DNA from: a virus
Length of the DNA stretch: 64,000 nucleotides
Virus record (IMG/VR): IMGVR_UViG_3300025299_000105
Reading direction: 5' to 3' (one strand)
Shown: piece after piece, positions 53,347 to 63,353 of the stretch
Position numbering within the stretch: position 1 is the first letter of the stretch
Layout: every line of letters begins with the position of its first letter
Made by a program: the position numbers and the translations under genes
Notes under the pieces: generated by a model
The model's input: only the letters and a program-made list of their open reading frames with translations
Database searches by the model: none
Told to the model about the DNA's origin: nothing

Positions 53347-53514
53347 ATGGACTTCGAGATCCTCACCATCGAGAAGATCCAGGGCGCCTTCGAGCGCGCC
53401 CTGGATCTGAGCTCGGATCGGGAACTGGCCATGCGCGCCGCCGCGCAGTCGCTCAACATCCCGGTCGAGTCCGTGCGCGAGGCCCTGGCCATCAGCGAGG
53501 GCACACCGGTATGA
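53347..53514 (+). CDS. Small hypothetical protein
   Basis: 55 aa, ATGA-coupled to the methyltransferase. Confidence 0.55.
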   Translation: MDFEILTIEKIQGAFERALDLSSDRELAMRAAAQSLNIPVESVREALAISEGTPV

Positions 53515-55412
53515 AGACCGTCGAGATCCGGCACTTCCACGCCTTCGTCGGCCTCGGCGGCGGCGCCCGCGGCTTCAACAAGGCGAACCCGCGCGTCGGC
53601 AACCTACAGGCGAAGTTCCGCTGCATCGGCGGGATCGACGTCGACGCCGCGGCCATCCGCGACTTCAACCGGCTGGCCAACGCCACCGGCACGGTGCTGG
53701 ATCTCTTCGATCGCAGCCAGTTCGAGGCCTTCCACGGCCGTCCGCCGCCGGCAGGCTGGACGGAGGCTATGCCAGCCGACATCCATCTCGCCGCCGGCCA
53801 CGAGCGCCCGCACATCGTCTTCCTCTCGGCGCCCTGCAAGGGCTTCAGCGGTCTGCTGTCCGAGGGGAAGAGCAAGACCGACAAGTACCAGGCCCTGAAC
53901 CGCCTCACGCTGCGCGGCGTCTGGCTGATGCTGGAGGCCTGGAGGGACGATCCGCCGGAGTTGTTCGTCTTCGAGAACGTGCCTCGCATCGCCACGCGCG
54001 GCCGGCACCTGCTCGACCAGATCGTCGACCTGCTGCGCAGCTACGGCTACGCGGTGGCCGAGACGACGCACGATTGCGGCGAACTCGGTGGCCTGGCACA
54101 GAGCCGCAAGCGCTTCCTCCTGGTGGCCCGGCACATCGAGAAGGTGCCGCCGTTCCTGTACGAGCCCGAGAAGCGCTCGCTGCGCGCCGTCGGCGATGTG
54201 CTCGGCAAGATGCTGATGCCCGGCGACATGCGCGCAGGCCCTATGCACCGCATTCCCGCACTCCAGTGGAAGACGTGGGTTCGCCTCGCCTTCGTGGAAG
54301 CCGGCAGCGACTGGCGCAGCCTGAACAAGCTGGCCGTGGAGAACGGGCACCTGCGGGACTACCTGATCGTGCCCGACATGCACCACGGCGTGCTGGGCGT
54401 GCGCGAGTGGGGTCAGCCTGCTGGTGCAGTGGCTGGCGCCAGCCGCCCGCAGAACGGATCCTTCGCGATCGCCGACCCGCGCCAGCAGCTCTATGCGGCC
54501 GGCTACGGTGTGACCGAGTGGGACGCGCCCAGCGGCGCGGTGGCTGGCGAGTCACTGCCGTCGAACGGGATGTTCGCCATCGCCGACCCTCGTTTCGAGC
54601 AGTCGACGAAATGGACAGACGGCCAGGCCTACGGCGTGCGCCGGTGGGACGCGCCCATGGGCACGATCGGGGGGCAGCAGAATCCCGGCCAGGGCAGCTA
54701 CACGATTGCCGACCCTCGGCACCAAGGGCCCGCGAAGCACAGCAACGAATTCCGCATCGTGCCCTGGGCCAGCGCCAGCTGCGCCGTCACCAGCGCGCAC
54801 GGGAGCGGGCAGGCTGTAGCCGACCCTCGGCCCGAGTGGGACGGTCGCCATGGGCATCTGCATGTCGCCGACTGGGAGCGCACGAGCCGCACCGTGACGG
54901 CAGGCGGGAAAGGGGTCCAGGGCGGCTACCTGTCCGTTGCAGATCCGCGCAGCGGCATGGCGCGCGGCAAGGGCGACGCCTACCTCTCAGGCGGCCACTA
55001 TGGGGTGACGTCATGGACGGGGCAGGCTGGTGCCGTCAGCGCGTCAGCGTGCCACGACAACGGCCGTTGGAGTGTCGCGGACCCTCGGCCGATGCCGGCA
55101 CCTGCCGACAAGCTGGTGTGCCGCATCCAGTCGCTGGACGGTACATGGCACCGCCCGTTCACGACTCTGGAGCTGGCCGCCTTGCAGTCGTTGTTCGATC
55201 CCGAGGAGCGCTTCGAGCTTGACGGTCTCAGCGATCAGGCCTGGCGCGAGCGCATCGGCAATGCCGTCCCCAGCGACGCGGCGTGCGCGATCGCCGAGGT
55301 GATGGGCACCACGCTGCTGCTGGCCATGTCCGGTGAAACCTTCATGCTGTCGGCCCAGCCGATCTGGGTGCGGGACGTGGCCATGGCTCTCACGATGCCG
55401 GGGGTGTCATGA
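53511..55412 (+). CDS. C5-cytosine DNA methyltransferase with tandem-repeat variable region
   Basis: FVGLGG (I), SAPCKGFS (IV, catalytic Cys), FENV (VI), QSRKR (VIII), ERIGNAVP (X); six ...ADPR repeats. Confidence 0.92.
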   Translation: MKTVEIRHFHAFVGLGGGARGFNKANPRVGNLQAKFRCIGGIDVDAAAIRDFNRLANATGTVLDLFDRSQFEAFHGRPPPAGWTEAMPADIHLAAGHERPHIVFLSAPCKGFSGLLSEGKSKTDKYQALNRLTLRGVWLMLEAWRDDPPELFVFENVPRIATRGRHLLDQIVDLLRSYGYAVAETTHDCGELGGLAQSRKRFLLVARHIEKVPPFLYEPEKRSLRAVGDVLGKMLMPGDMRAGPMHRIPALQWKTWVRLAFVEAGSDWRSLNKLAVENGHLRDYLIVPDMHHGVLGVREWGQPAGAVAGASRPQNGSFAIADPRQQLYAAGYGVTEWDAPSGAVAGESLPSNGMFAIADPRFEQSTKWTDGQAYGVRRWDAPMGTIGGQQNPGQGSYTIADPRHQGPAKHSNEFRIVPWASASCAVTSAHGSGQAVADPRPEWDGRHGHLHVADWERTSRTVTAGGKGVQGGYLSVADPRSGMARGKGDAYLSGGHYGVTSWTGQAGAVSASACHDNGRWSVADPRPMPAPADKLVCRIQSLDGTWHRPFTTLELAALQSLFDPEERFELDGLSDQAWRERIGNAVPSDAACAIAEVMGTTLLLAMSGETFMLSAQPIWVRDVAMALTMPGVS

Positions 55413-55681
55413 GTGCGAAGCCCTGCACACACCAGAACTTCGATGCCAGCTGCCGCGTGGCGCGGCTGGAAGACACCGGCCGCTTCATGCTGGAAGTGAC
55501 CGTGCATTGCACCGACTGCAAGCGGCCCTTCCAGTTCCTGGGCCTGCAGCCCGGCCTGAACTTCGACGGCGCCACGGTCAGCTTGGATGGTCTGGAAGCC
55601 AACCTCGCGATCTGCCCCCAGGGGCAGCGCCCGAATCCGTTCCAGGTTCTGCAGGGCTACACGATCAGGGGGACGAACTGA
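55409..55681 (+). CDS. Small Cys/His (Zn-binding-like) protein
   Basis: CTH...CTDC; overlaps the MTase stop and the next start. Confidence 0.7.
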   Translation: MSAKPCTHQNFDASCRVARLEDTGRFMLEVTVHCTDCKRPFQFLGLQPGLNFDGATVSLDGLEANLAICPQGQRPNPFQVLQGYTIRGTN

Positions 55682-56427
55682 TGCGGTTCTTCACAGGCCT
55701 GCACCAGCCGAGCGATGCGCGCCACTTCGATGGCGCCTTCGTGAGCGTCAACCGACTGCGCACGCGCAAGTCACCGATGCACGTCGGCGACTGGATCATG
55801 GACAGTGGCGCCTTCACAGAGATCTCGCGCCATGGCCGGTACCGTCACGATGTTTCGAGCTACGCCGCTGAGATCCGGCGCTGGGCGGCGAACGGCTCTG
55901 GCCGGCTGCTCGCAGCTGCCGCGCAGGACTACATGTGCGAGCCGTTCATCATCAAGATCACAGGGCTATCGGTAGCCGAGCACCAGCGCTTGACGATCGA
56001 ACGCTACGACGCGCTCCGCGCCGAAGACACCGGCGGCGTCTACATCCTGCCGGTGCTGCAAGGCTTCGAGCCGACGGACTACTTGCACCACCTGCGCGCC
56101 TATGGTTCCCGCCTCGCGCACGGTGCGTGGGTAGGTGTCGGCTCGGTGTGCAAGCGCAACGGGTCACCTGATCAGGTTGCCGCGGTGCTCATGGCGATCA
56201 AGGCCGAACGTCCCGATCTGCTGCTGCACGGCTTCGGGCTCAAGACCACCGCACTAGCGCACCCCTTCGTGCGCTCAATGCTGCACTCCGCCGACTCCAT
56301 GGCCTGGAGCTTCGCAGCACGCAAGCAGGGTCGGAATGCCAACGACTGGCGCGAGGCCGTGCGCTGGACTGACGCCATCGAAAGCCGCCCTGTGCAGCAC
56401 ATGCTCGACCTGGGAGCGGCACGATGA
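55681..56427 (+). CDS. Minimal TGT-fold (queuine tRNA-ribosyltransferase/DpdA-like) base-exchange enzyme
   Basis: MDSGAF, QDYMCEP, PVLQG, VGVGSVCKR, HGFGLK, SADSMAWS motifs. Confidence 0.8.
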   Translation: MRFFTGLHQPSDARHFDGAFVSVNRLRTRKSPMHVGDWIMDSGAFTEISRHGRYRHDVSSYAAEIRRWAANGSGRLLAAAAQDYMCEPFIIKITGLSVAEHQRLTIERYDALRAEDTGGVYILPVLQGFEPTDYLHHLRAYGSRLAHGAWVGVGSVCKRNGSPDQVAAVLMAIKAERPDLLLHGFGLKTTALAHPFVRSMLHSADSMAWSFAARKQGRNANDWREAVRWTDAIESRPVQHMLDLGAAR

Positions 56428-56435
56428 TGCGCCGC

Positions 56436-56675
56436 TCAATCCTCCAGGTCGAACTGCCCCTGCAGCGTGCGGATGATTTGCGCGATGTCGGCTCGGTGCG
56501 CGCCTCGGTCGGTGACGATGCGCACCGTCCAGTTCGGGCCGCTCTCCTCCGCCGGGATGCCGATGACACCACCTCGGTGAACGTCCGTCTGCTGCCCTCG
56601 AATGCCAGGCAGGTTTTCAATGCGCTGGATCAGCATCTGCTGCAGCTGCTGGGCGGTGCGGGTCGGCTTGGCCAT
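56436..56675 (-). CDS. Small accessory protein (antisense to the early operon)
   Basis: 79 aa, tandem with 56682-56900. Confidence 0.65.
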   Translation of the reverse strand: MAKPTRTAQQLQQMLIQRIENLPGIRGQQTDVHRGGVIGIPAEESGPNWTVRIVTDRGAHRADIAQIIRTLQGQFDLED

Positions 56676-56681
56676 CGCCGC

Positions 56682-56900
56682 TCAGTCCGGAAGCGTGCCG
56701 TACCAGATCTTCGTTCCGGCCTCGATCGCCTTCGGTACGTCCTGGTAGGTGTTGTCGTCGTCGGAGAGCGGCGGCAAGCCCTTTCGCTCGATCGCGGCGA
56801 TGGTGTAAGCGTCTTCGGCGTACTTCTTGAGCACCAGCACAGCGCGGCGGGCGCCCTTCTCCATCTCGATCCGCAGTTCCGTCGGTTCGGGCTTGTCCAT
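56682..56900 (-). CDS. Small accessory protein (antisense to the early operon)
   Basis: GGAGG SD, 72 aa. Confidence 0.65.
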   Translation of the reverse strand: MDKPEPTELRIEMEKGARRAVLVLKKYAEDAYTIAAIERKGLPPLSDDDNTYQDVPKAIEAGTKIWYGTLPD

Positions 56901-57799: not shown

Positions 57800-58002
57800 T
57801 GCACACCGACTTCCTCGACACCTCTCCCGACCGAGTGCGCGCCAAAGAGATCCAGGCCGTGCAGATGCACGCCCAGCAGCTGATCGACGTTGCCCGCGCG
57901 CGCGGCCTCGTGGTCACGATCTCGCTGGTCCCACGCATGCCGCCGGCGATGGGCTCCTACGAGATGGTGTTCGACATCCGGGAGGCCCGCCATGGCAGCT
58001 GA
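57796..58002 (+). CDS. Hypothetical protein
   Basis: VVTISLVPRMPPAMGSYEM; coupled. Confidence 0.65.
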   Translation: MMHTDFLDTSPDRVRAKEIQAVQMHAQQLIDVARARGLVVTISLVPRMPPAMGSYEMVFDIREARHGS

Positions 58003-59029
58003 CACCAAGATCGAGTGGACCGACGCCACCTGGAACCCGGTGACCGGCTGCAGCGTGCAAAGCCCGGGCTGCAAGAACTGCTACGCGATGAAGCTCGCCG
58101 GCACGCGCCTGCGTCACCACCCCAGCCGCGCCGGCCTGACGCAGGTGAGCGCCGCGGGCCCGGTGTGGACCGGCGAGACCCGTTTTAACGCCGAGTGGCT
58201 GGAACAGCCGCTGCAGTGGACTCGTGCAAGGATGATCTTCGTCTGCGCGCACGGCGATCTCTTCCACCCTTCGGTACCGGATGAATGGATCGACCAGGTC
58301 TTCGCCGTCATGGCGCTGACCGGGCGCCACACCTTCCAGGTGCTGACGAAACAGGCGAAACGCGCGGCAGAGTACTTCGCGCATCCAGTGCGCGAGGCCT
58401 TGATCGGGCAGCAGGTCGGACAGATCAATCTGCGACGGACCGGCAACCCCGTTGCAGCGTGGTCAGGCCTGCCGCTTCCGAACGTCTGGATCGGAGCGAG
58501 CGCCGAAGATCAGCGCCGGCTCGACGAGCGGCTTCCCCACCTCGTCGGCATCCCGGCCGCGGTGCGCTACCTCAGTCTGGAGCCTCTGCTGGGGGCGGTA
58601 GAGATCGATCGCCGGCTCATCGCGCCGATCGAAGGAACGTCGCAGCACGGCCAGCACTTCATCGACTGGGTGATCGTCGGCGGTGAGAGCGGCCACGGCG
58701 CGCGGCCAATGCATCCCGGCTGGGCGCGCAGTCTTCGAGATCAGTGCGTGGCCGCCGGCGTTGCCTTCTTCTTCAAGCAATGGGGGGAGTGGCGACCGAT
58801 GCAGTCCGAAGAAATCCCGCACGGTGGCGGCAGCTTTGAGTTGGTCAGCGCCGACGAGCGCAGGCCGATCGCCAGCGGCTGCTTCCAGCCAGCACACGCA
58901 ATCGAGTCAATGCTCAACGATCCTGCGTTCTCTTGGCAATGCCCGGTTGTGAAGGTCGGCAAGAAGGCCGCCGGCCGCCGTCTGGACGGCCGCACCTGGG
59001 ACCAGTTCCCCGAGGAGGGCCGGCCGTGA
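57992..59029 (+). CDS. DUF5131 (phage Gp37/Gp68, radical-SAM-like) protein
   Basis: TKIEWTDATWNPVTGC...GCKNCYA, HTFQVLTK, SLEPLLG, WVIVGGESG, FFFKQWG. Confidence 0.9.
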   Translation: MAADTKIEWTDATWNPVTGCSVQSPGCKNCYAMKLAGTRLRHHPSRAGLTQVSAAGPVWTGETRFNAEWLEQPLQWTRARMIFVCAHGDLFHPSVPDEWIDQVFAVMALTGRHTFQVLTKQAKRAAEYFAHPVREALIGQQVGQINLRRTGNPVAAWSGLPLPNVWIGASAEDQRRLDERLPHLVGIPAAVRYLSLEPLLGAVEIDRRLIAPIEGTSQHGQHFIDWVIVGGESGHGARPMHPGWARSLRDQCVAAGVAFFFKQWGEWRPMQSEEIPHGGGSFELVSADERRPIASGCFQPAHAIESMLNDPAFSWQCPVVKVGKKAAGRRLDGRTWDQFPEEGRP

Positions 59030-62021: not shown

Positions 62022-62302
62022 GTAGCCTGCCCTTCCTCTCCCAGGCCGAGATCGACGAGATCTGCGAGCCGTTGACGCAGCCGCGCGCGCAGTGCCGCTA
62101 TCTCTCCAAGGTGCTGAAGCTGCAGGTGCACGAGAAACCCAACGGGCGGCCGCTGGTCGCCCGCAGTGAGTTCGAGCGCGTGCTCGGCGCAGAGCGGTTC
62201 GGCACCGCGCCCAGCACGCCGCAGAACACCCCCAACGTCGTCGGGCTGCTGGCCCACATGCAAAAACGAAAGAACCATGGGACGAAAACGCAAGGACGGT
62301 GA
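62018..62302 (+). CDS. Excisionase-like protein (DUF4224-like)
   Basis: FLSQAEIDEIC...Q.RAQCRYL...NGRPLV.R, directly upstream of the integrase. Confidence 0.75.
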   Translation: MSSLPFLSQAEIDEICEPLTQPRAQCRYLSKVLKLQVHEKPNGRPLVARSEFERVLGAERFGTAPSTPQNTPNVVGLLAHMQKRKNHGTKTQGR

Positions 62303-63353
62303 CCCGATGGGTCTGGCCGGTACCAGGCTCAGCTTCAAGAACAACGCCTTCTACTACCGCCACCGAGATGGCCGCTGGGAGCGCGTCGGCACCGACATCA
62401 AGGCGGCCAAGGCGCGGGCAGCGCTGTACAACGACCCATCGGGCGTCTACGGGACAACCGGCTATTGGCTGGACATGTTCCTGGTGGACTGCGAGGCCCG
62501 GGTCAAGGCCAAGACGCTGGCGGCTCGCACCCTCGCCGACTACCGGCACAACGTGGTGCCGCTGAAGATCTTCTTCGGCGCGATGCTGCCGGAGACGATC
62601 ACGCCGAACCTCGTGCAGAACTACCTGAAGATGCAGGCCGACCTCGGCCGGCCAGTGCGCGGCAACCGCGAAAAGGCGTGTCTCAGCAGCATGATGAGCT
62701 GGCTGCTTCGGACGCAGCAGACCGCGCTGCAGATCAACCCCTGCATGCAGAAGTCCGGCACCGTGAGCAACCCGGAGTCGAAGCGGGAGCGCTACGTCAC
62801 GCACGAGGAATATCGGATCGTCCACGAGGGATCGGGCCCGCAGATCCGGCTTCTGATGGACCTCACCTACCGCACGTTGCAGCGCCCCGAGAGCGACATC
62901 CTGAAATGGACGCCGGCGAACATCACCCGAGACGAGAACGGCATGCGAGTCGTGAAACACACCCAGCACAAGACCCATGTCGCGCTCAAGATCGCCCTGA
63001 CTCCCGACCTGGCACGGCTGATCGACCGCGCGATCGGCGAGGTGCCGATCCTGCACCAGCCCATCGTGCACAACCGCAAGGGGAAGGCCTACACCTATTC
63101 CGGCATCCACTCAATGCTGACCGCCCAGATCCGGCGCATCAACGTCAAGCGGGAAAAGAAGGGTCTGCCGCCCATCGAGAGCTTCGGATTCCGGGACTTG
63201 AAGGGCAAGGGCGCCACGGACATGTGGCGGGCCGGCGTTCCCATCGAGCAGATCCAGCTGCTGTGCGGCCATGCCGACAAGGCAACCACGGAGAAATACA
63301 TCAAGGCCCGGTGGTCCGAAACGGCCTCGCCAAACCAGGTCGCCATGGTGTAG
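62277..63353 (+). CDS. int: Tyrosine recombinase (phage integrase)
   Basis: TLQRPESDIL, FRDLKGKGAT, LCGH, TEKYI; next to att. Confidence 0.9.
   Translation: MGRKRKDGDPMGLAGTRLSFKNNAFYYRHRDGRWERVGTDIKAAKARAALYNDPSGVYGTTGYWLDMFLVDCEARVKAKTLAARTLADYRHNVVPLKIFFGAMLPETITPNLVQNYLKMQADLGRPVRGNREKACLSSMMSWLLRTQQTALQINPCMQKSGTVSNPESKRERYVTHEEYRIVHEGSGPQIRLLMDLTYRTLQRPESDILKWTPANITRDENGMRVVKHTQHKTHVALKIALTPDLARLIDRAIGEVPILHQPIVHNRKGKAYTYSGIHSMLTAQIRRINVKREKKGLPPIESFGFRDLKGKGATDMWRAGVPIEQIQLLCGHADKATTEKYIKARWSETASPNQVAMV

Follow-up and report, generated by a model that had tools for sequence, protein, structure and literature searches.

A zinc-less, Orion-type DpdA-family protein encoded without preQ0 synthesis genes in a temperate phage, a putative stand-alone DNA guanine transglycosylase

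7-Deazaguanine modifications of DNA protect phages from restriction enzymes and from some CRISPR nucleases, and are in turn targeted by newer defence systems. Phages that carry the guanine transglycosylase homologue DpdA and no preQ0 synthesis genes, the DpdA-only phages, form the largest and least understood group. Here we analyse a gene of this kind, dpdA, found on the + strand (55681..56427) of a 64,000-nucleotide stretch of viral DNA, hereafter the window, which represents nearly all of IMG/VR virus record IMGVR_UViG_3300025299_000105 (64,007 bp; CheckV completeness 100%). Its 248-residue product is a DpdA-family protein with a conserved catalytic triad and no zinc site; we put at roughly 55% the probability that it acts alone as a DNA guanine transglycosylase, inserting into phage DNA preQ0 (perhaps preQ1) that is made by the host or salvaged.

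In the survey of Hutinet et al. 2019 (Nat Commun 10:5442), the 76 phages that have DpdA and lack preQ0 genes constitute the largest group (the "third group"). The authors proposed that such phages depend on host preQ0 or on uptake, and asked whether singleton DpdAs have diverged in function; their Supplementary Data 1 lists gp25 of phage phiLM21 as DpdA and gp26 as YhhQ. Phage DpdAs that are expressed by themselves in E. coli put host preQ0 into plasmid DNA, and the DpdA-only phages 7-11 and MED16 carry dADG (PMC6884629, PMC8306585), at a level of 0.02% in the DNA of Salmonella phage 7-11 (Hutinet et al. 2019). The novelty of a DpdA without preQ0 genes was therefore overestimated in the initial annotation of the window, as the class is described in that survey and includes the phiLM21 protein, a 60%-identical homologue. 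The present phage is a new member of this DpdA-only class.

Assignment of the 248-residue protein to the DpdA family comes from its match to Pfam family PF23859 (142 bits against a gathering cut-off of 27, E 2.5e-41) and to phrog_1279 (1.6e-67). The Pfam match spans profile positions 5-224 of 291, the same range as for the proteins of phiLM21, RHph_TM3_3_3 and Orion. The catalytic motifs of the tRNA-guanine transglycosylases (TGTs), which the initial annotation had claimed for this gene, are all located in the translation, as D41-S-G-A-F45, Q82-D83, Q127-G128, H183-G-F-G186 and S203-A-D205-S206. An alignment of 53 sequences, extending down to 40% identity, shows that D41, D83, D205, Q127-G128, G152/G154 and H183-x-F-G are invariant, and D41 (of DSGAF), D83 (of QD) and D205 (of ADS) are also kept in Orion. 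Three Asp residues are invariant and essential in the TGTs and in bDpdA (PMC10164549). Judging from the order of the motifs and the published description, D41, D83 and D205 would correspond with bDpdA D95, D130 and D256, so that the general acid/base, the base-recognition residue and the nucleophile that characterise the TGT/DpdA superfamily all have a counterpart here.

The predicted structure of the protein is a TGT-type (β/α)8 TIM barrel. The model used was an AlphaFold model run with the 53-sequence alignment; a single-sequence model, with a predicted local distance difference test score of 34, was set aside. When the model is compared with solved structures, ArcTGT, bTGT and 7UI4 are tied. 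Searches of PDB sequences, by phmmer with the protein and by hmmsearch with the alignment, gave only chance matches to coronavirus protease (E above 0.05), and the tie to the solved TGT and DpdA structures therefore comes from the fold and the Pfam match. The protein ends 43 residues past D205 and contains just two cysteines, C86 and C157, so that no CxCxxC...H zinc site is possible. Both the TGT/DpdA identity proposed in the initial annotation and the loss of the C-terminal CxCxxC motif that it reported are thus upheld by profile search, structure prediction and inspection of the translation, and the evidence supports the description of the gene product as a zinc-less DpdA-family member of minimal TGT fold in which the catalytic triad is intact.

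The label "DpdA" has a particular meaning here. PF23859 scores the Orion protein (L091:1501-2148) at 413 bits and gives no match to gp2 of Rosebush (L089:789-1946), a phage with 28% dPreQ0 in its DNA; the name therefore denotes the Orion-type singleton subfamily, which is spread through temperate phages of Proteobacteria, Cyanobacteria and Actinobacteria. Similarity to DpdA1 was likewise not found: the best BLASTP segment between our protein and Rosebush gp2 covers 51 residues with E 0.015, and the record search returned no Rosebush match. Annotations based on PF23859 should not be taken as evidence of preQ0 insertion.

We consider it improbable that the protein is a phage tRNA-guanine transglycosylase whose target is tRNA, of the host or of the phage, and not DNA, even though the model lies as close to tRNA enzymes as to 7UI4. 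With hmmscan at E up to 1 the protein matches DpdA only, without a match to the TGT family PF01702, which is missing from the whole record as well. The Zn subdomain and the other elements that tRNA TGTs possess beyond their core are lacking (~229 of 344-plus residues have a counterpart), and the hosts possess a TGT pathway of their own. The surroundings of the gene also point to DNA: it is set among genes for DNA recombination, replication and methylation, and relatives of dpdA often stand near DNA methylases that are not orthologous to the one in the window.

If the protein is a preQ0 insertase, the base must come from elsewhere. Profile searches of the complete record gave no match to QueC, PTPS/QueD, GTP cyclohydrolase I, Radical_SAM, QueF or TGT, so that the absence of preQ0 synthesis genes reported for the window holds for all 64,007 bp; nor was there a match to the YhhQ/Vut_1 transporter family or to ParB_N (PF02195), the family of the ParB-like DpdB partner that bDpdA requires for activity. 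The phage thus has neither the FolE, QueD, QueE and QueC genes of a phage 7-deazaguanine cluster nor the DpdB ATPase of the bacterial Dpd system, in which DpdA is accompanied by DpdB and DpdC-K. Most of its relatives are likewise without QueC, a true one being encoded in only 2 of 50 related records and missing from 25 of the 27 with a completeness of 90% or more. A gene for a YhhQ/Vut_1 queuosine-precursor transporter occurs in four of the 50 (L001, where it is phiLM21 gp26, L017, L022 and L073), and in all four it directly adjoins dpdA, a pairing of salvage and insertion genes that the window does not have. On the host side, QueC is encoded by all four tested genomes that are lysogenic for relatives and, in the family to which one of these lysogens belongs, a likely host family, by 53 of 61 sampled genomes. 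Because of the QueC genes in these genomes and the YhhQ-type genes beside dpdA in four relatives, reliance on host or salvaged preQ0 is plausible. The suggestion in the initial annotation that a temperate phage draws on host preQ0 or preQ1 stands to that extent.

Two PP-loop proteins encoded near dpdA in relatives could be mistaken for QueC. A PAPS-reductase-like PP-loop protein is encoded just downstream of dpdA in L060 (6750-7847), the closest relative, and another, EVB37_084 of RHph_TM3_3_3 (L002:7297-8106), two genes downstream. Weak QueC-like matches (~19 bits) beside dpdA in the closest relatives, L060 and L006, proved to be PAPS-reductase-like PP-loop proteins and were rejected as QueC.

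In the reading that we prefer, dpdA would be an accessory gene within a recombination-to-integrase early operon, carried by a temperate phage with a Comamonadaceae-type host. As the phage grows lytically, chosen guanines of its DNA would be flipped out of the helix, D205 would attack C1' as the nucleophile and D41 would serve as general acid/base. Guanine would thereby be exchanged for a 7-deazaguanine base not synthesised by the phage itself, preQ0 or possibly preQ1, taken from the host queuosine pathway or from salvage. The outcome would probably be low-level, motif-specific dPreQ0 in addition to the 5-methylcytosine placed by the neighbouring methylase, and both would protect against host nucleases. 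The family, the fold, the conserved catalytic residues, the lack of preQ0 genes, the independence of the two upstream genes and the QueC genes of likely hosts are observed here, whereas DNA as the target, preQ0 as the base, how much of the DNA is modified and the benefit in protection are inferred.

Several observations weigh against this proposal. The structural Zn2+ site found in TGTs and in bDpdA is missing, and comparison of the predicted model with solved structures does not separate DNA from RNA enzymes. The Pfam name is centred on an Orion-type subfamily whose activity is putative, and the sole member examined, Orion, was negative: its DNA contains no 7-deazaguanine (Hutinet et al. 2019), and its host has no preQ0 pathway. 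The subfamily is nevertheless present with all of its motifs intact in about 400 mycobacteriophages, the host of which lacks this pathway, and such conservation hints at a role that is independent of preQ0. The host of the present phage, moreover, is a presumptive one.

The mycobacteriophage genes and the result for Orion could mean that the protein is an active DNA base-exchange or glycosylase-type enzyme whose substrate is neither preQ0 nor preQ1, the entire short, zinc-less PF23859/PHROG 1279 subfamily having diverged to place another base or to remove one. Beyond these two points, this possibility draws on the loop that follows strand 6, which in TGTs and DpdA reads the 7-substituent and here has the distinctive, invariant sequence G-V-G-S-V-C-K-R, and on the question of functional divergence raised by Hutinet et al. 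2019. The guanine-recognising residues D83 and Q127-G128 are, however, invariant too, genes for YhhQ-type precursor transporters adjoin dpdA in four relatives, and for those mycobacteriophages M. smegmatis is a laboratory host only; on balance we regard a different substrate as unlikely. If it were true, it would explain why the subfamily is conserved in hundreds of mycobacteriophages with a preQ0-less host, and the present phage, its host being preQ0-proficient, would lend itself to the search for the real product.

The negative result for Orion could also mean that the gene is a silent or near-neutral passenger that gives no detectable modification, and even in the DpdA-only phages that are modified only 0.02-0.13% of G is changed. 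Such inactivity is hard to reconcile with the strong purifying selection on the protein: in the 53-sequence alignment 32 columns are invariant and 47 nearly so. Relatives of the present DpdA, 36-94% identical, were detected at 72 loci in a scan of IMG/VR, and the reading frame is intact at every one of them; the gene also spreads among unrelated phage backbones. We consider a passenger role quite unlikely, and insertion of preQ0 remains our preferred function.

The gene dpdA is the last of three + strand genes that lie head to tail at 53511-56427, the first encoding a C5-cytosine DNA methyltransferase (53511..55412; 633 residues) and the second a 90-residue CxH...CxxC protein (55409..55681). 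The overlapping stop and start codons described in the initial annotation are confirmed by the sequence, by the translations and by an independent gene prediction for metagenome contigs of this phage, which gives the same three proteins. At the junction of the first two genes (tcATGAgtg, with A at 55409) the stop TGA occupies 55410-55412 and the next ATG 55409-55411; at the junction with dpdA (aacTGATGcgg, with T at 55679) the stop occupies 55679-55681 and the ATG 55681-55683. Overlaps are commonplace in this operon, however, being found in the gene calls at 11 of its 19 same-strand junctions, nine of them by 4 nucleotides, and therefore do not mark the three genes as a unit.

The "coupled operon" of methylase, zinc protein and TGT proposed in the initial annotation fails when the relatives of dpdA are compared. 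A methylase homologue is encoded within 6 kb at only one of the 72 loci, L048, and the 90-residue protein has a homologue at none of them. At L060, where the DpdA is 94% identical to ours, the flanks are wholly different, and a search of 301 genomes from the family to which a Hydrogenophaga lysogen belongs matched the methylase part in ~20 and the DpdA part in three, never together. It could still be argued that the three proteins act as one machine, with the zinc protein for example supplying a zinc module in trans: the codons overlap, and a small protein with four invariant metal-ligand residues stands beside a DpdA that has no Zn site. Given these distributions, the homologues of the zinc protein in prophages that have no DpdA nearby, and the normality of overlapping junctions, we consider this highly improbable. 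The methylase, the 90-residue protein and DpdA are not a conserved unit, and a functional coupled module is not supported; what interest the locus retains lies in the Orion-type subfamily rather than in the three-gene layout.

Nor does dpdA keep any other constant company. Clustering of all open reading frames at the 72 loci revealed no conserved neighbour, the best real one being a DnaB helicase at eight of them; the top clusters were shadow reading frames within dpdA itself and were discarded. We conclude that genes of this DpdA subfamily move singly among phage backbones that are unrelated to one another. A looser association with methylation is seen, in that at least about 11 of 50 records have a C5-methyltransferase of one family or another within ~5 kb of dpdA, a lower bound since the PF00145 search missed the divergent L048 methylase that tblastn finds. 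MT-A70 methylases occur near dpdA at five loci, and methylases of other families flank it in phiLM21 and RHph_TM3_3_3. This pattern suits a neighbourhood of DNA-modification genes better than a machine. At L048 the methylase and dpdA are parted by a different, 93-residue Cys-containing protein and a Zn-ribbon/ASCH-like protein (L048:5396-6004), and dpdA is the last gene ahead of the excisionase and integrase.

The methylase itself matches PF00145 with 52.9 bits against a cut-off of 22 (E 5e-14), as well as phrog_32684 (3.9e-112) and phrog_116. Its translation contains the FxGxG (AFVGLGGG), PC (SAPCKGFS), ENV, QSRKR and GNAVP motifs, and the above-threshold profile match together with the PC, ENV, QxRxR and GNAVP motifs identifies it as a C5-cytosine DNA methyltransferase. 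The variable region (54390-55095) is made up of six repeats of ~35 residues, ending in SFAIADPR, MFAIADPR, SYTIADPR, QAVADPR, LSVADPR and WSVADPR; the L048 methylase, 54% identical, has a comparable run with AD[PVL]R endings. These repeats may represent a reiterated target-recognition module. The PHROG 116/32684 methylases of Pseudomonas phages H66, Dobby and PP9W and of Achromobacter phage CF418P1 show the same order of motifs and 70-74% nucleotide identity. In these phages the methylase part of the query was matched and the DpdA part was not, and methylase and dpdA therefore travel separately.

The 90-residue protein matches no family in Pfam, PHROG or NCBIfam, and in the ESM Atlas it falls only into unnamed, virus-rich clusters. 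It nonetheless belongs to a prophage-borne family, for which we found 139 homologues and in which C6, H8, C34 and C37 are invariant (37-sequence alignment), a pattern of potential ligands suggesting that it is probably a small zinc binder. Prophages of Variovorax, Pseudomonas, Kaistia and Methylobacterium contain homologues that have no DpdA in their vicinity, and one such Variovorax prophage also has the operon backbone of the present phage. In L083, a Variovorax prophage that shares this backbone, it is the DUF5131 gene and not the methylase that precedes the homologue.

The early + strand operon runs from a PD-(D/E)XK exonuclease through a RecT-like protein, an SbcC-like ATPase and a DnaQ-like exonuclease to the three genes, followed by a DUF5131 protein and a tyrosine integrase. 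The integrase (62166-63353, + strand; PF00589 1e-09, phrog_1 1.3e-38), at the end of the operon, shows that the phage is temperate, as had been supposed. The DUF5131 protein (57992-59029; Gp37/Gp68, PF07505, 315 bits) has a cluster of Cys residues at its N-terminus. Directly after dpdA the operon is broken by two small genes on the - strand (56436-56900), encoding proteins of 79 and 72 residues without a Pfam family, which look like a moron-type insertion.

Three features that emerge from the comparison are of practical use: the lone-gene mobility of the subfamily, the fact that a YhhQ-type gene, when present, always adjoins dpdA, and the blindness of PF23859 to the Rosebush enzyme.

Comparison with the characterised insertases, bDpdA of Salmonella Montevideo (PDB 7UI4) and the DpdA1 and DpdA2 enzymes of 9g, CAjan, Rosebush, nt-1 and VH7D, shows that the TGT-type TIM barrel is common to all, together with the three Asp residues, the base-recognising Q/H-G and the Gly-rich loop in the same order. 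The present DpdA is, however, ~140-165 residues shorter than these enzymes, lacks their Zn site, a DpdB/ParB partner and linked preQ0 genes, and has no detectable sequence similarity to PDB chains.

Much closer are gp25 of phiLM21 (Sinorhizobium) and EVB37_081 of RHph_TM3_3_3 (Rhizobium), DpdAs of ~250-270 residues that are 59-60% identical to ours. Both phages are also temperate and lack FolE, QueD, QueE and QueC, and both carry dpdA in the early region beside DNA methyltransferases, although the neighbouring methylases are of families other than that in the present phage. In phiLM21 a YhhQ-type transporter gene directly follows dpdA, whereas the present phage has no such gene.

The Orion-type singletons of mycobacteriophage clusters B1 and K, which form the core of PF23859 and PHROG 1279, show 41-43% identity to the present DpdA (43% for Orion itself, ~40% for the dpdA genes of the roughly 400 mycobacteriophages) and have all of the invariant motifs in common with it. 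Like our protein they are short and zinc-less, and the phages that encode them have no preQ0 genes. The two differ in their setting: the host of Orion has no preQ0 pathway, whereas the likely hosts of the present phage encode QueC. The window offers a clean DpdA-only example, a temperate phage whose likely host family makes preQ0.

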